DNA of 64,000 nt from Escherichia phage EC128. Where the stretch lies: sequence record ON210139.1; one strand, given 5' to 3'. The stretch's first letter is position 1. Every line of letters starts with the position of its first letter. Below are positions 2,215 to 31,101 of this stretch, one piece after another. The translations under genes and the position numbers were made by a program. The notes under the pieces were generated by a model. The model worked only from the letters and a program-made list of their open reading frames with translations, was not told the DNA's origin and searched no databases.

Positions 2215-3802
<1,588 letters not shown>

Positions 3803-3805
3803 GCT

Positions 3806-3859
3806 GTTTACAAGTCCCTCGTGTTGTGTTACAGTAGTCTTACTGACATAACATGAGGA
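3806..3859 (+). promoter_or_regulatory. early promoter/stem-loop element, copy A (GTTTAC -35, TACAGT -10, through SD GAGGA)
   Basis: GTTTAC 3806-3811, 18-nt spacer, TACAGT 3830-3835; 53/54 nt identical to 17909-17962; imperfect stem GTCC(C)TCGTGTT/AACATGAGGAC encloses the -10. Confidence 0.6.
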
Positions 3860-3866
3860 CTTTATG

Positions 3867-4370
3867 ATGGATTTGCAGCTTATTACTACTGAGATGGTCG
3901 TTGAAGCATACGGTGATACTACAGATGGGATTTCTGTATTCAAAGGAAATCGTCGAGTTGGATATATCACTGATCTTAAGAAAGATTTAGCTAAGCAAGT
4001 TAAGCGGAAAACGACCGTTAAAGAATATCGAAATCGTCGTCTTGAGAAAGCCCGTGATATGCTTCCTAATGCAGTTGAGGAGATGAAAGTCTTTTTAGAA
4101 AATCAACTCGTTAAGTATGATTGTGAAGTGTTCATTAATCAGACTCAACCTAATGTTCATATTAACAACTGTAAATGCTATATCATCGTTAATCCTTTGA
4201 CAGGAAAACATCGTCTTGGAATTAGTAATCCAAATCGTAGCGCATCAGATATGGCAGAAGATGTTGAGGCATGCTTTAAAATTTCTAAATCTCCGGCTGA
4301 ACATCATATTTTAATTAACGGTCTTTCTCAAGACGATATTATAGAGGTTATTAAAACTTTATGCAATTAA
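3867..4370 (+). CDS. alc: Alc, inhibitor of host transcription, 167 aa
   Basis: MDLQLITTEMVVEAYGDTTDG..; position after rnlA as in T4; SD GAGGA 7 nt upstream. Confidence 0.85.
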   Translation: MDLQLITTEMVVEAYGDTTDGISVFKGNRRVGYITDLKKDLAKQVKRKTTVKEYRNRRLEKARDMLPNAVEEMKVFLENQLVKYDCEVFINQTQPNVHINNCKCYIIVNPLTGKHRLGISNPNRSASDMAEDVEACFKISKSPAEHHILINGLSQDDIIEVIKTLCN

Positions 4371-4714: not shown

Positions 4715-5010
4715 TTAAACTATCAGCAGTAATATTATCTATTGGTCTTCTAGTTGGTTGTTCTACAAAGCCTCTAGAAGTAAAGAAAGAAACAGTTCAT
4801 CCTAATTGGCCTGTACAAATAAAGTCATATGATGAAGCTAAACTATCTTGGCAAGTTAAAGTTATCGATGGTAAAGCTTGGGTCGGTATGCCATTTGAAG
4901 ATTCCCAGGAATTTCGTATTTGGCTTAATGATGTAAAACGATATGTACATGATCAGAAAACTATGATATGTTATTATCGCCAAGAGTTAAAAGAGGATAA
5001 ATGTAAATGA
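4711..5010 (+). CDS. pseT.2: o-spanin (outer-membrane lipoprotein spanin)
   Basis: Signal peptide with lipobox LLVGC-S (MIKLSAVILSIGLLVGCSTK); paired with the upstream i-spanin-like ORF. Confidence 0.75.
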   Translation: MIKLSAVILSIGLLVGCSTKPLEVKKETVHPNWPVQIKSYDEAKLSWQVKVIDGKAWVGMPFEDSQEFRIWLNDVKRYVHDQKTMICYYRQELKEDKCK

Positions 5011-5231
5011 TTTCATGGCATCAATTTGAACATCTCAAAGGATTGATTTATGAATCCGAGATGGCTGCAATGATTTATGGACGCCAGATTCAACGATTAG
5101 AATCTTTACCTCCAACTAATGATGTTTTATTAGCTCAATCACGTGCTAATCTTAAAAATGAATACCAAAATAAGTGGGGTAAAGCATCTAAAGACCTGCA
5201 TGATTATATTCAATCATTGGTTGAGAAATAA
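5007..5231 (+). CDS. hypothetical protein, 74 aa
   Basis: ATG overlapping upstream stop (ATGA); SD AAGAGGA upstream; no recognisable motif. Confidence 0.6.
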   Translation: MISWHQFEHLKGLIYESEMAAMIYGRQIQRLESLPPTNDVLLAQSRANLKNEYQNKWGKASKDLHDYIQSLVEK

Positions 5232-5234
5232 TAA

Positions 5235-6441
<1,207 letters not shown>

Positions 6442-7112: not shown

Positions 7113-7151
7113 GTTTACTTTACGGTAGAGTTGTGATATTATAGCTCTACC
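7113..7151 (+). promoter_or_regulatory. early promoter with stem-loop enclosing the -10 (PeSL-like)
   Basis: GTTTAC 7113-7118, 18-nt spacer, TATTAT 7137-7142; stem GGTAGAG (7124-7130) / CTCTACC (7145-7151). Confidence 0.5.
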
Positions 7152-7172
7152 AAAACAAATGAGGAAATTGAA

Positions 7173-7700
7173 ATGAGCGAATGGTTTGAAGAAGATAAGG
7201 TTTATCGCTTTAAAGCTGGATATAAAGATATTTTTAATGAAACTTGCGGGGCTAATAAACGAATTGCCCAGTTTATTGGGGAAAATTCATTTAAAGTAAA
7301 AATAGATCCTGCGAAAAATGTTATTAGCATTAAACGCGAAATTGATGATTGTTGGTATAAAGCTGTTGATGTAATGGGCGAATCTTATAAAGTTAGCCCG
7401 TTATTTTCAATTGCTTATATGTTAGAATATTCTTTTTTCGAAGAAGTTCAAAAAGATGATTCTGTCAGTAAATTTGAAATTAAAACTGATAAAGAAATTA
7501 AGTGGAAAGTAGTAGGTATTACTGGTTGTATGTTTTATATCTATGCTCAAACTGATACGAAGGAAGAAGCTAAAAAGAAAGCTCTAGAATATCTTGAAGA
7601 GTATGAAGAAGGTCCGGTAATGATTACTCAAGATGCTGAATTAGTTTCTGTCAAATTAGTTAAAAATGTTGAAAGTAAGGAGCTGGGATCAACATGCTAA
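7173..7700 (+). CDS. hypothetical protein, 175 aa
   Basis: ATG with SD GAGGA; follows PeSL-like promoter; no recognisable motif. Confidence 0.65.
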   Translation: MSEWFEEDKVYRFKAGYKDIFNETCGANKRIAQFIGENSFKVKIDPAKNVISIKREIDDCWYKAVDVMGESYKVSPLFSIAYMLEYSFFEEVQKDDSVSKFEIKTDKEIKWKVVGITGCMFYIYAQTDTKEEAKKKALEYLEEYEEGPVMITQDAELVSVKLVKNVESKELGSTC

Positions 7701-11557: not shown

Positions 11558-11845
11558 ATGTTTATGACTACTTATTTTGATACCCGCAAAAATTTCTGTG
11601 AAGTTGTTTTCTCAAAGGCACCTAAAGACCTTCCTGCACATTTGCAACCTACTAGCGAATCGATTAAAAACTACGTTGATGTGGTTTGTCCTTTAGAGTT
11701 CCGTACTGTAAATGGGCGTGATACTTTAGCTATCACTAAACTCAATCGCGAAATTGACATTGACCCTTCAATTGCGCGCGAAATTAATATCTCTGATATT
11801 GGCGGCGGTAATGTTAAATCGCACGGTTTTCAGATGAGGTTCTAA
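11558..11845 (+). CDS. hypothetical protein, 95 aa
   Basis: ATG with SD GAGGA; preceded by hairpin GGGGC-TTCG-GCCCC at 11528-11541. Confidence 0.6.
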   Translation: MFMTTYFDTRKNFCEVVFSKAPKDLPAHLQPTSESIKNYVDVVCPLEFRTVNGRDTLAITKLNREIDIDPSIAREINISDIGGGNVKSHGFQMRF

Positions 11846-12042
11846 TGAAATTCTTTTTAGGTCAAACTGTTGAATTAAAGGGAGTTGGTATACCTGGATT
11901 AATTTCTAAGGTTCTACCTCCATTTAAATGGAGTGGTATTCAAATAAAAGAGGCTTATATTGTTTCCTGGGTAGATGGAAATGAAGACCTTCGTATGGGT
12001 GATGAATTATCTCCTATCTACGGATTAAAGGAATTAGTATGA
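11845..12042 (+). CDS. hypothetical protein, 65 aa
   Basis: TAATG overlap with upstream ORF; SD GAGGT. Confidence 0.55.
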   Translation: MKFFLGQTVELKGVGIPGLISKVLPPFKWSGIQIKEAYIVSWVDGNEDLRMGDELSPIYGLKELV

Positions 12043-13801: not shown

Positions 13802-15261
13802 TTCTTAAAATTCTGAACGAAATAGCATCTATTGGTTCAACTAAGCAGAAGCAAGCAATTCTTGAAAAGAATAAAGATAATGAATTGCTTAAACGAGTAT
13901 ATCGTCTGACTTATTCTCGTGGGCTGCAGTATTATATCAAGAAATGGCCTAAACCTGGTATTGCTACCCAGAGTTTTGGAATGTTGACTCTTACCGATAT
14001 GCTTGACTTCATTGAATTCACATTAGCTACTCGGAAATTGACTGGAAATGCAGCAATTGAGGAATTAACTGGATATATCACCGATGGTAAAAAAGATGAT
14101 GTTGAAGTTTTGCGTCGAGTGATGATGCGAGACCTTGAATGTGGTGCTTCAGTATCTATTGCAAACAAAGTTTGGCCAGGTTTAATTCCTGAACAACCTC
14201 AAATGCTGGCAAGTTCTTATGATGAAAAAGGCATTAATAAGAATATCAAATTTCCAGCCTTTGCCCAGTTAAAAGCTGATGGGGCTCGGTGCTTTGCCGA
14301 AGTCAGAGGTGATGAATTAGATGATGTTCGTCTTTTATCACGAGCCGGTAATGAATATCTAGGATTAGATCTTCTTAAGGAAGAATTAATCAAAATGACC
14401 GCTGAAGCCCGCCAGATTCATCCAGAAGGCGTGTTAATTGATGGCGAATTGGTATACCATGAGCAAGTTAAAAAGGAGCCAGAAGGCCTAGATTTTCTTT
14501 TTGATGCTTATCCTGAAAACAGTAAAGCCAAAGAATTCGCCGAAGTAGCTGAATCACGTACTACTTCTAATGGAATCGCTAATAAATCTTTAAAGGGAAC
14601 CATTTCTGAAAAAGAAGCTCAATGCATGAAGTTTCAGGTCTGGGATTATGTTCCATTGGTAGAAATATACGGTCTTCCTGCATTTCGTTTGAAATATGAT
14701 GTACGTTTTTCTAAACTAGAACAAATGACATCAGGCTATGATAAAGTAATTTTAATTGAAAACCAGGTAGTAAATAACCTAGATGAAGCTAAGGTAATTT
14801 ATAAAAAGTATATTGACCAAGGTCTTGAAGGTATTATTCTCAAAAATATCGATGGATTATGGGAAAATGCTCGTTCAAAAAATCTCTATAAATTTAAAGA
14901 AGTAATTGATGTTGATTTAAAAATTGTAGGAATTTATCCTCACCGTAAAGACCCTACTAAAGCGGGTGGATTTATTCTTGAGTCAGAGTGTGGAAAAATT
15001 AAGGTAAATGCTGGTTCAGGCTTAAAAGATAAAGCCGGTGTAAAATCACATGAACTTGACCGTACTCGCATTATGGAAAACCAAAATTATTATATTGGAA
15101 AAATTCTAGAGTGCGAATGCAACGGTTGGTTAAAATCTGATGGCCGCACTGATTACGTTAAATTATTTCTTCCGATTGCGATTCGTTTACGTGAAGATAA
15201 AACTAAAGCTAATACATTCGAGGATGTATTTGGTGATTTTCATGAGGTAACTGGTCTATGA
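13798..15261 (+). CDS. 30: ATP-dependent DNA ligase, 487 aa
   Basis: MILKILNEIASIGSTKQKQAILEKNK.. and adenylation motif KADGAR; matches T4 DNA ligase. Confidence 0.97.
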   Translation: MILKILNEIASIGSTKQKQAILEKNKDNELLKRVYRLTYSRGLQYYIKKWPKPGIATQSFGMLTLTDMLDFIEFTLATRKLTGNAAIEELTGYITDGKKDDVEVLRRVMMRDLECGASVSIANKVWPGLIPEQPQMLASSYDEKGINKNIKFPAFAQLKADGARCFAEVRGDELDDVRLLSRAGNEYLGLDLLKEELIKMTAEARQIHPEGVLIDGELVYHEQVKKEPEGLDFLFDAYPENSKAKEFAEVAESRTTSNGIANKSLKGTISEKEAQCMKFQVWDYVPLVEIYGLPAFRLKYDVRFSKLEQMTSGYDKVILIENQVVNNLDEAKVIYKKYIDQGLEGIILKNIDGLWENARSKNLYKFKEVIDVDLKIVGIYPHRKDPTKAGGFILESECGKIKVNAGSGLKDKAGVKSHELDRTRIMENQNYYIGKILECECNGWLKSDGRTDYVKLFLPIAIRLREDKTKANTFEDVFGDFHEVTGL

Positions 15262-15446
15262 AAGCTTACTTAGAAACAATTGTCATTGCTCAAAAAGAAG
15301 GTGGAGATGTTTCTACTTCTGTATCACAAGTCATTCTCGAATTTGTAGATGCATACGCTTATAATAAATTTACAGAAACATTTGATGCCTATGAAAAAGG
15401 ACCAAAGTTTGAAATATATCGTACTCTCTTACCACTAGATTACTAA
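15258..15446 (+). CDS. hypothetical protein, 62 aa (between ligase and alt)
   Basis: ATG overlapping ligase stop; followed by terminator. Confidence 0.55.
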   Translation: MKAYLETIVIAQKEGGDVSTSVSQVILEFVDAYAYNKFTETFDAYEKGPKFEIYRTLLPLDY

Positions 15447-15470
15447 AGGCCTTCGGGCCTTTAATTTTAT
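15447..15470 (+). terminator. rho-independent terminator
   Basis: Stem AGGCC-TTCG-GGCCT followed by TTAATTTT. Confidence 0.7.
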
Positions 15471-15475
15471 AAATA
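15468..15475 (+). promoter_or_regulatory. candidate late promoter TATAAATA upstream of alt
   Basis: Exact TATAAATA about 24 nt upstream of alt ATG. Confidence 0.5.
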
Positions 15476-15498
15476 GAATAAACACTAGAGAGGATATG

Positions 15499-17547
15499 AT
15501 GGAACTAATTACAGAATTATTTGACGAAGATACTACTCTTCCGATTACAAACTTAAATCCAAAGAAGAAAATACCACAAATTTTTTCAGTTCATGTTGAT
15601 GATGCAATTGAACAACCAGGCTTTCGTTTATGTACCTATACATCTGGAGGTGATACTAATCGTGATTTAAAGATGGGCGATAAAATGATGCATATTGTTC
15701 CTTTTACATTAACCGCTAAAGGTTCAATTGCTAAATTGAAAGGTCTTGGTCCAAGCCCAATTAATTATATCAATTCGGTTTTTACTGTTGCAATGCAAAC
15801 AATGCGTCAGTATAAAATTGATGCCTGTATGCTCCGTATTCTTAAGTCTAAAACTGCTGGTCAAGCTCGACAAATTCAAGTTATTGCTGATAGACTTATC
15901 CGTAGTCGTTCAGGTGGCAGATACGTCCTTCTTAAGGAACTCTGGGATTATGATAAAAAGTATGCATATATTCTTATACATCGCAAAAATGTATCACTAG
16001 AAGACATTCAAGGGGTTCCGGAAATTAGTACCGAGCTCTTTACTAAAGTTGAATCGAAGGTCGGTGATGTTTATATCAATAAAGATACTGGAGCTCAAGT
16101 AACTAAAAATGAGGCAATTGCAGCATCTATTGCACAAGAAAATGATAAACGTTCTGATCAAGCTGTAATCGTTAAAGTTAAAATTTCCCGTAGAGCAATT
16201 GCACAAAGTCAGTCGTTGGAATCTTCTAGATTTGAAACACCGATGTTTCAAAAATTTGAGGCTTCAGCGGCAGAATTAAATAAACCAGCGGACGCTCCTT
16301 TAATTTCTGATTCTAATGAATTAACGGTAATTTCTACTTCAGGATTTGCACTAGAGAATGCTCTTAGCAGTGTTACAGCTGGGATGGCATTCAGAGAAGC
16401 TTCTATAATTCCTGAAGATAAAGAATCCATTATTAATGCAGAAATAAAAAATAAAGCTTTAGAAAAATTACGAAAAGAATCTATTACTTCAATAAAAACT
16501 TTAGAAACTATTGCTTCTATCGTCGATGATACTTTAGAAAAATATAAAGGTGCTTGGTTTGAAAGAAATATTAACAGACATTCGCATTTAAACCAAGATG
16601 CTGCAAATGAGTTAGTACAAAATTCTTGGAATGCAATAAAAACAAAGATTATTCGAAGAGAATTACGTGGATATGCTCTTACCGCTGGATGGTCATTACA
16701 TCCTATAGTCGAAAATAAAGATTCATCTAAATACACACCAGCACAAAAACGCGGAATTCGTGAATACGTAGGTTCAGGATATGTAGACATAAATAATGCT
16801 CTTTTGGGATTATATAATCCAGATGAGCGTACAAGTATTTTAACAGCACCTGAAATAGAACAAGCCATTGATAATTTAGATTCAGCCTTTAAAAATGGTG
16901 AACGATTACCAAAAGGTATTACTTTGTATCGTTCACAACGAATGTTACCTTCAATATACGAAGCAATGGTAAAAAATCGAGTTTTTTATTTTAGAAACTT
17001 TGTGTCAACATCATTATATCCAAATATTTTTGGTACTTGGATGACTGATTCATCTGTGGGTGTTTTACCAGACGAAAAGCGTCTAAGTGTTTCTATTGAT
17101 AAAACTGATGAAGGACTAGTAAATTCTAGCGATAATTTAGTTGGAATTGGATGGGTTATTACTGGGGCTGATAAGGTTAATGTTGTTTTACCCGGTGGAA
17201 GTTTAGCGCCTTCAAATGAAATGGAAGTCATTTTGCCACGTGGATTAATGGTCAAAGTTAATAAAATAACCGATGCATCTTACAACGATGGAACAGTTAG
17301 AACTAACAACAAGCTTATTCAAGCTGAAGTTATGACCACAGAAGAACTCACCGAATCGGTAATCTATGACGGAGACCATTTAATGGAAACTGGTGAATTG
17401 GTTACAATGACAGGTGATATAGAAGACAGAGTTGACTTTGCATCATTTGTTTCATCAAATGTTAAACAGAAAGTAGAATCATCTCTTGGAATTATTGCGT
17501 CTTGCATAGATATTGCAAACATGCCTTACAAGTTCGTTCAAGGATAA
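15499..17547 (+). CDS. alt: Alt, packaged ADP-ribosyltransferase, 682 aa
   Basis: MELITELFDEDTTLPITNLNPKKKIPQIF.. matches T4 Alt; SD GAGAGGA; second ATG of ATGATG chosen to give 682 aa. Confidence 0.93.
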   Translation: MELITELFDEDTTLPITNLNPKKKIPQIFSVHVDDAIEQPGFRLCTYTSGGDTNRDLKMGDKMMHIVPFTLTAKGSIAKLKGLGPSPINYINSVFTVAMQTMRQYKIDACMLRILKSKTAGQARQIQVIADRLIRSRSGGRYVLLKELWDYDKKYAYILIHRKNVSLEDIQGVPEISTELFTKVESKVGDVYINKDTGAQVTKNEAIAASIAQENDKRSDQAVIVKVKISRRAIAQSQSLESSRFETPMFQKFEASAAELNKPADAPLISDSNELTVISTSGFALENALSSVTAGMAFREASIIPEDKESIINAEIKNKALEKLRKESITSIKTLETIASIVDDTLEKYKGAWFERNINRHSHLNQDAANELVQNSWNAIKTKIIRRELRGYALTAGWSLHPIVENKDSSKYTPAQKRGIREYVGSGYVDINNALLGLYNPDERTSILTAPEIEQAIDNLDSAFKNGERLPKGITLYRSQRMLPSIYEAMVKNRVFYFRNFVSTSLYPNIFGTWMTDSSVGVLPDEKRLSVSIDKTDEGLVNSSDNLVGIGWVITGADKVNVVLPGGSLAPSNEMEVILPRGLMVKVNKITDASYNDGTVRTNNKLIQAEVMTTEELTESVIYDGDHLMETGELVTMTGDIEDRVDFASFVSSNVKQKVESSLGIIASCIDIANMPYKFVQG

Positions 17548-17551
17548 ATCA

Positions 17552-17937
17552 TGGAACTTATTACATAATTATTTGACGGCGCTTCGGCGCCGGTTGTTAA
17601 CTTAAATCCTAAGCATAAAATACCACAAATTTTTGCTATTCAAGCCGGCGAAGAAAGCGTGCTTCCTGGATTTAGATTTTGTACATACACCTCTGGCGGT
17701 GATACGAATAAAAACGTTAAGCCGGGCGATAAAATGATGCATATCGTAATGATAGGTGTTAATGAGAAATTATCACTGGTTAAGCTTAGAAACTTGGGTG
17801 GAAATCCAATTGGCGTCATTAATGCTGTTTTTGATACTGCTCTTCAAACAATGAAGCAGTATAAAATTGACGCATGCCTATTCCGCGTACTAAAAAGTTC
17901 AAAATGTAGTTTACAAGTCCCTCGTGTTGTGTTATAG
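17552..17937 (+). pseudogene. decayed duplicate of the alt 5' region (Alt N-terminal paralogue remnant)
   Basis: ATGGAACTTATTACATAA.. parallels alt start ATGGAACTAATTACAGAA; in-frame TAA at codon 6, then open through residues equivalent to Alt ~7-125; ends inside the downstream promoter repeat. Confidence 0.5.
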
Positions 17938-17962
17938 TAGTCTTACTGACATAACATGAGGA
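17909..17962 (+). promoter_or_regulatory. early promoter/stem-loop element, copy B
   Basis: 53/54 nt identical to 3806-3859 (single C/T difference in the -10); GTTTAC 17909-17914, TATAGT 17933-17938, SD GAGGA 17958-17962. Confidence 0.6.
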
Positions 17963-17969
17963 ACACAAA

Positions 17970-18260
17970 ATGAAATCTTCTTTGCGCTTTTTAGGTCAAG
18001 AACTTGTAGTTGAAGGCGTTATTCCTGCTGATAATGCTTTTAACGAAGCAGTTTATGATGAATTTATCAAAATTTTCGGAACAGATAAAAAGTTTGGAAT
18101 TTTTCCTTCTGAAAATTTTTCAAAGCCAGAACAGACTGAAAGTATTTTTCAGGGTGTAGTAACAGGTAAATTTGAGTCAGAAGCTCCTGTAAAAATTGAA
18201 GTTTATATTGAAGACGGTTTAGTTGCTTCAGTTGCTGCTTTCATTTCATTCCGTAAATAA
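17970..18260 (+). CDS. hypothetical protein, 96 aa, cargo ORF downstream of promoter repeat copy B
   Basis: ATG 8 nt after SD GAGGA; followed by strong bidirectional terminator; no recognisable motif. Confidence 0.6.
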   Translation: MKSSLRFLGQELVVEGVIPADNAFNEAVYDEFIKIFGTDKKFGIFPSENFSKPEQTESIFQGVVTGKFESEAPVKIEVYIEDGLVASVAAFISFRK

Positions 18261-18266
18261 AAATAT

Positions 18267-18284
18267 GGGGACCGAAAGGTCCCC
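18267..18284. terminator. bidirectional terminator hairpin between the 96-aa ORF and gene 54
   Basis: Stem GGGGACC-GAAA-GGTCCCC flanked by A/T-rich runs on both sides. Confidence 0.7.
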
Positions 18285-18288
18285 ATTG

Positions 18289-19254
18289 TTATATTGCTCC
18301 TAATATTTTACTTTGCGAATTGACAATTCCTGTCATGGTATTAATGTTTGAAATGCTTCCAGCAGTTCCCCCTAATCTACTGAGTCGTGAAAGCGAATTA
18401 GATAGTCCAGTAACGCCTCCGCTATTTCCGAGAACGCTTTGAATACCATTTATAGCAGCAGATTCAAGCCATTCAAGCGCAGCTTGCCTATCAACTGCTC
18501 CAGCCTGCATCACTCTATACGCAAAAGTAACGTCAAATGTAGTTATTTGGTTATCTCCATCATATGATAACTCAGGAGCGCTCACTGATATTGGAATGCA
18601 TCCGGTGAACATCACCGCAGTATGAGGCAATCCATTACGAGAATGAAGATTAACCTGAATATCCGCCTCGACATCTTGTGGCAAAGCACGTAATCCAGTT
18701 ACTGGGTCTTGAACGGAGTTAACCCAGTCTTGCATTGCACGATAGTTACAAGCTTCTGAATCCATTCTAAATGAAATAACCAAAGGGTCTAATTCTCTCC
18801 CAGTTATACGAATATTAGGAGAATTATAGTTCCAGTCAGTTTCATAGGATAATCTATTCTCTGGCATTTTTACAGAATATATCATCAATCCAGATGAGTT
18901 ATATGCCATGTTAAAGAAGTCAATTAAATATGTACCAACTGTAAATGAGCCTAATAAACTTTGAACTGTACGTTGACTCATGGCACCAATAAGATATTTA
19001 CTAACCCCTGATTTTCTTATCAGTTTTTGTGTGCCAGCAGTAATTAGCGTGGTAATTCCCTGATTAATATCACCTTGAGTCAATCCTAACCAATCTGAAT
19101 TTAGGCCCAAGTTATTATAAGAAAAGTTGCTAATTGAACTTATCAACGAAGAGCTTTTAGTTGATGGAGTTGTCGCAAAAACGCAGCTAAACATATTATT
19201 ACGTTGGAAATCTGCGTTTATTGCTTGATTATTAAATTCCTCTAAAGAATACAT
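18289..19254 (-). CDS. 54: baseplate tail-tube initiator gp54
   Basis: Length (321 aa) and gene order 54-48-29-28-27-51 as in T4; ATG confirmed. Confidence 0.85.
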   Translation of the reverse strand: MYSLEEFNNQAINADFQRNNMFSCVFATTPSTKSSSLISSISNFSYNNLGLNSDWLGLTQGDINQGITTLITAGTQKLIRKSGVSKYLIGAMSQRTVQSLLGSFTVGTYLIDFFNMAYNSSGLMIYSVKMPENRLSYETDWNYNSPNIRITGRELDPLVISFRMDSEACNYRAMQDWVNSVQDPVTGLRALPQDVEADIQVNLHSRNGLPHTAVMFTGCIPISVSAPELSYDGDNQITTFDVTFAYRVMQAGAVDRQAALEWLESAAINGIQSVLGNSGGVTGLSNSLSRLSRLGGTAGSISNINTMTGIVNSQSKILGAI

Positions 19255-29682: not shown

Positions 29683-31101
29683 ATGACTTTTACAGTTGAT
29701 ATAACTCCTAAAACACCTACTGGAGTTATAGATCAGACTCAGCAGTTTACTGCTACACCCAGTGGTCAAACTGGAGATGGACCTATTACATATGCTTGGA
29801 CTGTAGATGATGTTCCACAAGATGGAGCTGAAGCAACTTTTAGTTATGTATTAAAAGGACCTGCCGGTCAAAAGACTATTAAAGTAGTTGCAACAAATAC
29901 AGTTCCAGAAGCTGAAGCTGAAACAGCAGAAGCTACTACAACTATCACAGTTCAAAATAAGACACAAACGACCACCTTAGCTGTAACTCCTAATAGCCCT
30001 GACGCTGGAGTAATCGGAACAGCTATTGAATTTACTGCCGCTTTAGCTTCGCAGCCACCAGGTGCATCTGCTACGTATCAATGGCACGTTGACGGTTCTC
30101 CTGTGGGCGAAGCAACTTCTGCTACATTCAATTACACTCCTACCACAAGCGGAGTTAAAACAATTAAGTGTGTGGCTCAAGTAACCGCGACAGATTATGA
30201 TGCAAAAGAAGTTACTTCTAATGAAGTGTCACTGACTGTTAATAAAAAGACACAGACAACTACCTTGGCAGTAACTCCCGATAGTCCTTCAGCTGGAGTA
30301 ATCGGAACAGCTGTTGAATTTACCGCTACTTTAGTTTCTCAACCTGATGGAGCATCTGCTACGTATCAGTGGTATGTAGATGATTCACAAGTTGGTGGAG
30401 AAACTAACTCTACATTTAGCTATACTCCAACTACAAGTGGAGTAAAAAGAATTAAATGCGTAGCCCAAGTAACTGCAGAAAATTACAATGAAAAGGAAGT
30501 TACTTCTAATGAAGTATCATTAACGGTTAATAAGAAGACAATGAATCCACAGGTTACATTGACTCCTCCTTCTATTAACGTTCAGCAAGATGCTTCGGCT
30601 ACATTCACGGCTAATGTTACTGATGCTCCAGAAGAAGCGCAAATTGCGTATTCATGGAAGAAAGATTCTTCTCCAGTAGAAGGGTCAACTAATGTATACA
30701 CTGTTGATACATCATCTATTGGAAGTCAAACTATTGAAGTTACTGCAACTGTTACTGCTACTGATTATGATAGCAAAACTATCACAGCAGAAGGTCAAGT
30801 TCAGGTAACTGATAAAGTTGCTCCAGAACCAGAAGGTGAATTACCTTATGTTCATCCTCTTCCACATCGCACTTCAGCTTATATCTGGTGCGGTTGGTGG
30901 GTTATGGATGAAATCCAAAAAATGACTGAAGAAGGTAAAGACTGGAAAACTGACGACCCAGATAGTAAGTACTACTTGCATCGTTACACTCTTCAGAAGA
31001 TGATGAAAGACTATCCAGAAGTTGATGTTCAAGAATCGCGTAATGGATACATCATTCATAAAACTGCTTTAGAAACTGGTATTATCTATACCTATCCATA
31101 A
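29683..31101 (+). CDS. hoc: Hoc outer capsid decoration protein with four tandem Ig-like domains, 472 aa
   Basis: Repeated Ig-like modules (KTQTTTLAVTP...VSLTVNKK twice); about 96 aa longer than the 376 aa I recall for T4 Hoc. Confidence 0.88.
   Translation: MTFTVDITPKTPTGVIDQTQQFTATPSGQTGDGPITYAWTVDDVPQDGAEATFSYVLKGPAGQKTIKVVATNTVPEAEAETAEATTTITVQNKTQTTTLAVTPNSPDAGVIGTAIEFTAALASQPPGASATYQWHVDGSPVGEATSATFNYTPTTSGVKTIKCVAQVTATDYDAKEVTSNEVSLTVNKKTQTTTLAVTPDSPSAGVIGTAVEFTATLVSQPDGASATYQWYVDDSQVGGETNSTFSYTPTTSGVKRIKCVAQVTAENYNEKEVTSNEVSLTVNKKTMNPQVTLTPPSINVQQDASATFTANVTDAPEEAQIAYSWKKDSSPVEGSTNVYTVDTSSIGSQTIEVTATVTATDYDSKTITAEGQVQVTDKVAPEPEGELPYVHPLPHRTSAYIWCGWWVMDEIQKMTEEGKDWKTDDPDSKYYLHRYTLQKMMKDYPEVDVQESRNGYIIHKTALETGIIYTYP
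29959..30534 (+). repeat. tandem direct repeat, 2 x 288 bp, encoding two near-identical Ig-like domains inside hoc
   Basis: Residues 93-188 and 189-284 of Hoc align without gaps with many identical positions; nucleotide copies are diverged. Confidence 0.8.

Follow-up and report, generated by a model that had tools for sequence, protein, structure and literature searches.

Between the ADP-ribosyltransferase gene alt and the baseplate genes of Escherichia phage EC128 lies a 96-codon open reading frame that follows a damaged, partial second copy of alt. The arrangement raises the question of whether this open reading frame is a mobile promoter-plus-gene module dropped into a decayed alt duplicate, as an earlier note on this DNA had proposed, or an old occupant of the junction beside which a neighbor has decayed. 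We addressed this question in a 64,000-nt stretch of the phage sequence (ON210139.1; hereafter referred to as the window), which is Tequatrovirus DNA. We consider it likely that the locus has a three-part explanation: a resident early unit, a decayed alt paralogue and a copied promoter.

Composition and annotation of the alt/gene 54 junction

Over 17400–18400 the identity of the window is 99.9% to Yersinia phage fPS-2 and 96.8% to T4, and 503 phage records, nearly all of them Tequatrovirus, match this segment. DNA ligase (gene 30) is followed by alt.1, alt and the region under study and then, on the opposite strand, by genes 54, 48 and 29. The features considered below are as follows.

3806–3859, + strand: second copy of the 54-nt promoter and leader (53/54 match; −10 box TACAGT)
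15468–15475, + strand: TATAAATA, 20 nt before the alt start, a putative late promoter with the established T4 consensus
15496–17547, + strand: alt, ADP-ribosyltransferase of 683 amino acids (PF03496, E = 1.4e-34)
17551–17909, + strand: alt.-2 pseudogene remnant, equivalent to T4 alt.-1 plus alt.-2 (alignment with RB14; pseudogene label in fPS-2)
17890–17898, + strand: deletion junction, the lone CTAAAAAGT left of a pair of 9-bp direct repeats (alignment with RB14)
17909–17962, + strand: predicted 54-nt early promoter and leader of alt.-3 (repeat and motif scans)
17970–18260, + strand: alt.-3, 96-residue early protein of DUF5498/PHROG 1739 (profile matches)
18265–18286, no strand assigned: predicted bidirectional intrinsic terminator (scans of both strands; annotated on both strands in fPS-2)
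18289–19254, − strand: gene 54, baseplate tail-tube initiator and convergent neighbor (annotation in T4 and fPS-2)

The alt product of the window is 99% identical to T4 Alt, which is a late, packaged protein, and the gene is named alt in both T4 and fPS-2. The region 17551–18260 is the T4 alt.-1/alt.-2 pseudogene followed by alt.-3. The T4 record describes alt.-1 and alt.-2 as ‘an old duplication of the first part of gene alt’, the T4T record refers to ‘a deletion and further frame shift in the second copy of gene alt’, and the T4 records label alt.-3 a ‘conserved hypothetical protein’. The corresponding labels in the fPS-2 record are ‘putative pseudogene’ and ‘phage protein’, with terminators on both strands. 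Nolan et al. (2006; PMC1524935) counted alt.-1/alt.-2 among the paralogous duplicates, with alt as the parent. The locus has long been annotated and is already known, the pseudogene, the open reading frame and the terminator all being part of the T4 reference annotation; as a genome feature it adds little, the gene family being already present in Pfam and PHROG.

The terminator region at 18265–18286 folds into a hairpin of 9 pairs, 6 of them G-C, with predicted energies of −19.2 kcal/mol on the + strand and −17.3 kcal/mol on the − strand, which bears out the strong bidirectional terminator that the earlier note had described. Toward gene 54 there is a clear T-run (ATTTTTATTT, − strand), and toward alt.-3 a weaker one (TTGTTATATTG, + strand); with a hairpin and a T-run for each strand, the element would act as a Rho-independent terminator in both directions. 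It divides the early alt.-3 unit (+ strand) from the late baseplate operon 54-48-29 (− strand), and Marfa, Melville and Mineola have an equivalent annotated terminator. A search of 17300–18500 for RNA elements gave no Rfam match near the gathering score and no tRNAs. Two minus-strand open reading frames, 17640–17819 and 17819–17968, are short and carry no annotation in T4 or fPS-2, and were treated as chance occurrences.

Residency of alt.-3 and deletion within alt.-2

To place alt.-3 among the T4-like phages, we compared the junction across genera. Alt.-3 was found in 836 phage records, with one copy in each (836/836), and the order alt, alt.-3, terminator and gene 54 on the opposite strand was the same in all nine genera examined. 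The loci opened were those of Tequatrovirus RB14 and T2, Dhakavirus IME08 (where alt is present as two full genes, alta and altb), RB69-like JK45, Marfavirus, Kanagawavirus, Gelderlandvirus, Kagamiyamavirus and Jiaodavirus, the alt.-3 of the last being a distant orthologue (hhalign probability 94%). The gene thus lies where the family is expected, between the last alt paralogue and gene 54 and on the alt strand. In eight genera the sequence GTTTAC starts at the alt stop codon or at most 8 bases after it; downstream of it come a spacer (~17 nt), a −10 box, a leader (~20 nt) and a Shine-Dalgarno sequence, either AGGA or GAGGA. The same order, together with an own promoter, across genera indicates that the promoter-gene-terminator unit is an old resident of the junction. 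Aligning the alt/gene 54 junction across T4-like phages, a comparison that the earlier note had suggested, therefore revealed alt.-3 in place in the nine genera and not the presence/absence pattern of a cassette. The same note had named, as evidence that would tell against its reading, the same open reading frame at the same place in all T4-like genomes with an assigned function; the constant position was largely found, and the assigned function was not.

The partial second copy of alt is present as described, although its start codon is the ATG at 17551, three bases past the alt stop (17547), and not at 17552. Two direct repeats tie it to the 5′ end of alt: 15496–15526/17548–17578 (31 nt, 90%) and 15541–15698/17590–17747 (158 nt, 73%). 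The remnant consists of alt.-2 codons 1–116 followed by the last 11 nt of that gene, including the stop codon TAG (17907–17909), and it is interrupted by a nonsense codon, TAA, at codon 6 (17566–17568). At the amino acid level its 116 codons are 60% identical to the adjacent Alt as against 98% to the N-terminus of RB14 Alt.-2, and the remnant is therefore the relic of an old paralogue and not a fresh copy of the adjoining alt. Among its 15 nucleotide differences from RB14 alt.-2, 13 are synonymous, and the nonsense codon is one of the other two. A PF03496 search of the remnant gave no match; the C-terminal ADP-ribosyltransferase domain is absent, and translation meets a stop at codon 6. No protein from alt.-1/alt.-2 was detected in the T4 proteome (PMC9697503 supplements).

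Two alignments with the RB14 locus (L009) define how the remnant arose. The window sequence 17540–17898 is 95.8% identical to RB14 positions 2952–3310 (the first 359 nt), and 17890–18300 is 97.3% identical to positions 5001–5411, which comprise the last 20 nt of the alt.-2 region and alt.-3. Both alignments overlap on CTAAAAAGT, which RB14 has at 3302–3310 and again at 5001–5009, and at this point the window passes from the first RB14 context straight into the second. The arrangement in T4 and fPS-2 thus corresponds to a 1,699-bp deletion between 9-bp direct repeats. T4 shares the deletion junction with the window and differs from it in the secondary lesion, which is the nonsense codon 6 in the window and a 1-nt frameshift that splits alt.-1 from alt.-2 in T4. 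For about 410 of the 503 records (~80%), homology to the window ends exactly at 17890 with an Alt-like coding sequence to the left. About four fifths of the Tequatrovirus genomes thus have alt.-2 intact, ahead of the same alt.-3 unit. The intact alt.-2 of RB14 and T2 is 2,058 nt long, the RB14 product having 686 amino acids, and the RB14 stop codon TAG corresponds to window 17907–17909. Full-length Alt and Alt.-2 are 41% identical, and AltB of IME08 is 48% identical to Alt.-2 and 33% to Alt. The low identity between Alt and Alt.-2, set against the 98% identity between the remnant and Alt.-2, indicates that the duplication is old and the deletion recent.

In RB14 and T2, with their full-length alt.-2, an identical promoter and alt.-3 unit lies directly past the alt.-2 stop codon. 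This finding does not agree with insertion of the unit into a decayed alt duplicate, since the same unit stands beside an intact gene and the 1,699-bp deletion explains the arrangement seen in the window. The idea that a mobile cassette of promoter and ORF, with the 54-nt element as its mark, was dropped at the early/late boundary draws on the presence of this element at two places 14.1 kb apart, on the adjoining variable stretch in which alt.-2 is present or deleted, and on the ability of promoter cassettes of the PeSL type to shuffle small open reading frames in T4-type phages (PMC4122927). It is nevertheless extremely improbable in view of the single-copy state and the synteny of alt.-3, the separate promoter that it has at the alt stop codon or closely behind it, the identical unit in the genomes with intact alt.-2, and the lack of anything like alt.-3 downstream of the alc copy of the element. 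The rearrangement junction, moreover, lies 11–19 nt upstream of the 54-nt element, inside alt.-2 coding sequence and at an unrelated 9-bp repeat. We conclude that the neighbor decayed beside a resident gene and that alt.-3 is not a newly inserted mobile cassette; the single copy per record and the shared place in nine genera leave the mobile module of the earlier note without footing.

The proposed course of events can be outlined as follows. The resident would be an ancient early unit composed of a sigma-70-type promoter, an unstructured leader of about 25 nt, a strong Shine-Dalgarno sequence, alt.-3 and the bidirectional terminator. An old second alt paralogue, alt.-2, would once have stood upstream of it. 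In the lineage of T4 and fPS-2, recombination or slippage between the CTAAAAAGT repeats would then have dropped 1,699 bp of alt.-2 and fused its codons 1–116 out of frame to its final 11 nt, after which the remnants presumably decayed independently, by the nonsense codon in the window and by the frameshift in T4. The 9-bp microhomology deletion is a tidy example of paralogue loss in T4-type genomes.

The promoter-leader shared by alt.-3 and alc

The 54-nt element upstream of alt.-3 contains a −35 sequence TTTACA (17910–17915), a 17-nt spacer and a TG-extended −10 sequence TATAGT (17933–17938), and ends in the Shine-Dalgarno sequence GAGGA (17958–17962), with the alt.-3 ATG following 7 nt later; the 96-amino-acid open reading frame and its good Shine-Dalgarno sequence are as the earlier note had given them. 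With a G before TTTACA, a TG before TATAGT and a spacer of 17 nt, the element has the features of a T4-type early (sigma-70) promoter, for which the described consensus is GTTTAC at −35 and a TG-extended TAnnnT at −10 (PMC4122927, PMC1524935). In the window the final base of the upstream alt-family stop codon doubles as the G that opens the −35 box. Transcription would start near A17945, and no structure was predicted for the resulting leader (0 kcal/mol).

The second copy of the element, at 3806–3859, begins 3 nt past the stop codon of rnlA (gene 63) and lies ahead of alc, whose open reading frame was called from 3864 to 4370 with tandem ATGs at 3864 and 3867. The sharing of the element with the alc upstream region was confirmed, the two copies being identical at 53 of 54 positions. 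Elsewhere in the 64 kb no ungapped match exceeds 30/54, and no chance matches to the element are expected. The copy pair is also found in T4, RB14 and T2, with 1–5 differences between the copies within any one genome. In IME08, JK45 and Melville, the alc early promoter starts at the rnlA stop codon or at most 4 bases past it, and the alc and alt.-3 promoters are 53–77% alike, which is the range of unrelated early promoters. As the near-identity is confined to Tequatrovirus, a copy or conversion event between the two promoter-leaders is indicated. The repeat, in other words, points to a putative copying of a promoter and not to mobility of a gene. The direction of the event is not clear from the comparison with IME08, whose alc promoter has a similarity of 0.80 to the Tequatrovirus element and whose alt.-3 promoter has one of 0.72, these differences being small.

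We envisage that the alc and alt.-3 early promoters probably underwent a copy or gene-conversion event, possibly with later constraint. Concerted evolution by frequent, ongoing conversion was considered and set aside, the only sign of it being a single T2-specific substitution common to both T2 copies. The variant TACAGT is specific to the alc locus in the window and in RB14, and such locus-specific variants speak against frequent conversion. They can be cited in favor of another explanation, in which selection keeps the 54-nt identity because the element holds a shared regulatory site through which a protein or an RNA co-regulates alc and alt.-3. Consistent with such selection, the spacer, which lies outside the consensus, and the leader as far as the Shine-Dalgarno sequence share in the identity, the identity is retained in the window, T4, RB14 and T2, and the copies differ at just 1–5 positions while the synonymous divergence of alt.-3 reaches 0.09–0.16. 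We nevertheless regard co-regulation as quite unlikely: the alc and alt.-3 promoters of Dhakavirus, JK45 and Gelderlandvirus are as unlike as unrelated ones, so that a need for co-regulation is not visible there, and the leader has no predicted structure. To our knowledge, no factor recognizes the spacer or the leader of the element. The Tequatrovirus-specific promoter-leader duplication is a tidy example of the copying of a regulatory module in T4-type genomes.

The closest described concept to the 54-nt element is the PeSL (promoter-early stem-loop) cassette of Krisch and colleagues (Arbiol et al., 2010, PMC2839356; Comeau et al., 2014, PMC4122927). As in PeSLs, there is a repeated early promoter unit of about 50 nt that ends in a Shine-Dalgarno sequence and a start codon, fits the PST/T4 PeSL promoter consensus TTTACW-N17-TAYWAT and adjoins a variable segment. 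The stem-loop that defines a PeSL was, however, not found upstream of the 54-nt copies; the 48 nt upstream of the two copies fold like shuffled sequences (−3.5 and −3.6 kcal/mol, z = 0.5 and 0.0). The element further differs from PeSLs in that just two copies are present (the third-best match is the one of 30/54), in that the deletion ends 11 nt before it, at a separate 9-bp repeat, and in that the gene downstream of it, alt.-3, is not variable but single-copy in the 836 records.

Conservation, expression and possible role of Alt.-3

Alt.-3 matches PF17602 (DUF5498) over residues 1–96 of 96 with a score of 212.8 bits (cut-off 27), and PHROG 1739 with E = 3.8e-44. T4 Alt.-3 (NP_049808/UniProt P39493) is the orthologue and likewise has 96 amino acids, residue 83 being G in the window and S in T4. 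Promoter, Shine-Dalgarno sequence, terminator and neighbors are the same in both phages, except that the promoter differs at one base and that the terminator loop is GAAA in the window and TTTC in T4. Comparisons among the alt.-3 genes of the window, T4 and RB14 gave 5–9 synonymous versus 0–1 non-synonymous changes (dN/dS 0.03–0.05 within Tequatrovirus), and 14 residues, including F91, F94 and R95 in the C-terminal strand, are invariant across 48 homologues. The 48-homologue profile retrieved only 22 cluster representatives among 1.84 billion proteins. Most of them are about 95–115 amino acids long and lack informative fusions, the exceptions being three short fragments and three long, multi-stretch hits that are probably spurious; Alt.-3 is confined to T4-like phages.

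The AlphaFold model of Alt.-3 (pLDDT 95.4) is a compact, acidic alpha/beta structure of the order strand-strand-helix-strand-helix-strand-strand, in which the native C-terminus forms the last strand of the sheet and leaves no free tail. Together with the substitution counts and the invariant residues, the model strongly supports a real and constrained protein. The predicted fold, though confident, had no match to any solved structure. The earlier note had recognized no motif in the protein; the families matched are the uncharacterized DUF5498 and PHROG 1739. PADLOC and NCBIfam returned nothing for Alt.-3, and neither a profile nor a fold match to a characterized defence or anti-defence family was found. 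Within the window, gp30.5 (11845–12042), flagged by a sequence repeat, was considered as a paralogue of Alt.-3 and dismissed as a chance similarity (BLASTP E = 0.055 over 15 residues, different PHROG).

A time-resolved omics study classed T4 alt.-3 as ‘early RNA, early protein’ (PMC9697503 supplements), and together with the T4-type motif this makes it plausible that the early promoter drives the open reading frame, as the earlier note had assumed. CRISPRi-ART knock-down of T4 alt.-3 carried no fitness cost (‘Not Fit’; PMC11879866 supplements), and a T4 alt.-3 deletion is viable (PMC11618068). The picture is that of a protein that would appear in the first minutes after infection, that the phage can do without in laboratory hosts and that is under strong purifying selection.

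A phenotype of Alt.-3 was described by Vassallo et al. (2024; PMC11618068), who reported that all T4 mutants escaping the CmdTAC defence system extend the C-terminus of Alt.-3, to 110 or 117 amino acids. Extended Alt.-3 blocks the ClpP-dependent loss of the antitoxin CmdA, whose last residues are LAA, and protects cells against CmdTA toxicity; wild-type Alt.-3 is neither a trigger nor an inhibitor of CmdTAC and has no effect on CmdA; and the deletion phage does not escape the system (PMC11618068). alt.-3 was hit in 5/5 replicate evolutions, and 17 rounds brought the deletion phage no alternative route (PMC11618068). Translation of the window past the alt.-3 stop codon yielded two escape tails from the terminator region that are unrelated in sequence and give extended proteins of the right lengths: KYGD...FAN after loss of the stop codon (117 amino acids in all) and NKNMGT...YCS after a frameshift (110). 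As to the host-takeover or anti-defence role guessed in the earlier note, the sole phenotype so far is one of counter-defence, in that gain-of-function C-terminal extensions escape CmdTAC, whereas the wild-type protein does not affect it (PMC11618068).

The role that we hold most probable for Alt.-3, at about even odds, is that of a host-protein binder acting as a conditional host-takeover or counter-defence factor. That its target lies in or near the pathway of ClpXP and antitoxin turnover, as the extended mutant alleles would suggest, is possible but doubtful, and the added tails may have created the ClpXP link as a neomorphic property. A further possibility, which we hold to be less than likely, is that the link is purely an artefact of the tails, any abundant and tightly folded early protein with a loose tail clogging ClpXP and the wild-type target being an unrelated one. 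Such an artefact would fit the two tails being unrelated in sequence and both derived from the terminator region, the native C-terminus being held in the sheet of the model, and CmdA being unaffected by wild-type Alt.-3 (PMC11618068); the repeated selection of alt.-3 with no alternative route, on the other hand, suggests some specificity of the Alt.-3 body. A stronger proposal, that wild-type Alt.-3 has a new fold and naturally modulates ClpXP-dependent proteolysis or the turnover of antitoxins in the host, appears unlikely. If it were true, Alt.-3 could for example inhibit toxin-antitoxin(-chaperone) defences other than the CmdTAC variant tested, and changes in the conserved C-terminal strand F-hydrophobic-x-F-R-K would retune its specificity, which would explain why all the CmdTAC escapes map there. 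A C-terminal ‘IGF’ mimic of a ClpP-docking motif (consensus AFIGFRK) was rejected as a conserved motif: family members have G, S, L, I, V, T or E in the middle, and the model buries the segment as a beta-strand.

T4 PinA is a small early protein that inhibits the host AAA+ protease Lon and stabilizes its substrates. It offers a possible functional analogy for the extended Alt.-3 variants, from which wild-type Alt.-3 differs in that it does not stabilize CmdA. Alt.-3 is a conserved, early and dispensable T4 open reading frame and the sole locus through which T4 escaped CmdTAC, and the target of the wild-type protein could reveal a new mechanism of host takeover or counter-defence.

The position of alt.-3 suggests a further role, that of a functional partner of the Alt-family ADP-ribosyltransferases (a modulator, an immunity factor or a chaperone). 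Its strict adjacency to alt or alt.-2 in nine genera is in keeping with this role, as is the fact that the sole known phenotype involves a defence system whose toxin is also an ADP-ribosyltransferase. The escape alleles, however, act on the stability of CmdA and not on CmdT (PMC11618068). Furthermore, alt.-3 has its own early promoter whereas alt has the late-promoter consensus and encodes a packaged protein, and Krischvirus (kaaroe) and Twarogvirinae (fHyAci03) have alt but no alt.-3. Because of these different temporal classes and of the genomes with alt only, we judge a partnership with Alt to be very unlikely; over all records, Alt-family matches were obtained in 1,220, as against 836 for alt.-3.

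Promoters of alt.-3 and other early genes

In the promoter of alt.-3, the gene for a 96-aa early protein between the alt family and gene 54, a palindrome lies within the spacer between the -35 and -10 elements at the reference loci from genera other than Tequatrovirus (L003, L004, L005, L008 and L015). This palindrome reads CCACAnGGATGTGG in the alt.-3 promoters of IME08, Marfa and EcS1, and related forms of it are present in those of JK45, Melville and Mineola. The Tequatrovirus alt.-3 promoter lacks the spacer palindrome found in the other genera compared. The palindrome could be an operator or a relic of recombination.

Within the window, the third-best match to the 54-nt early promoter and leader element (30 of 54 positions) is located at 7113-7166. 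This stretch, which precedes the ORF at 7173, is likewise a promoter of the early type and includes a Shine-Dalgarno sequence (GTTTAC...TATTAT...AATGAGGAA); it exemplifies the background similarity between early promoters.

Between alt.-3 and gene 54, the stems of the terminator hairpin (18265-18286) are identical in the window and in its close relative T4 (L001). The hairpin loop is inverted between the two: the window has GAAA and T4 has TTTC.

Divergence and decay of alt, and its neighbor alt.1

The Alt protein of the window and T4 shares only 70% identity with that of RB14 (window 15496-17547 versus L009 866-2959), whereas the DNA flanking alt is about 96-97% identical. The 60-80% band of Alt identity contains 320 records. 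Within Tequatrovirus, alt thus has the look of an allele that diverges fast or has been exchanged. In Salmonella phage Melville (L007 1833-3940), the sole alt gene is broken by a frameshift, which resequencing by its authors confirmed; this is a further, independent decay of an alt-family gene beside an intact alt.-3.

The 62-aa product of alt.1 (15258-15446) matches the Pfam family PF24647 'Phage_blade' with an E value of 1.9e-29. In phage IME523, the homologous site carries the annotation 'GnsA/GnsB toxin'.

The nrdB region and a Hoc-like ORF

The nrdB region of the window comprises 83-595, 739-1548 and 1708-2187, and nrdB appears to be split by an intervening sequence, which carries a full-length, 269-aa ORF for an HNH-type, I-TevIII-like endonuclease. 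The nrdB of JK45 has the same layout.

A 472-aa ORF at 29683-31101 encodes a Hoc-like outer-capsid protein and contains a 288-nt tandem duplication (29947-30234 and 30235-30522; 76% identity). T4 Hoc has 376 aa; compared with it, the ORF presumably has one extra 96-aa Ig-like repeat.
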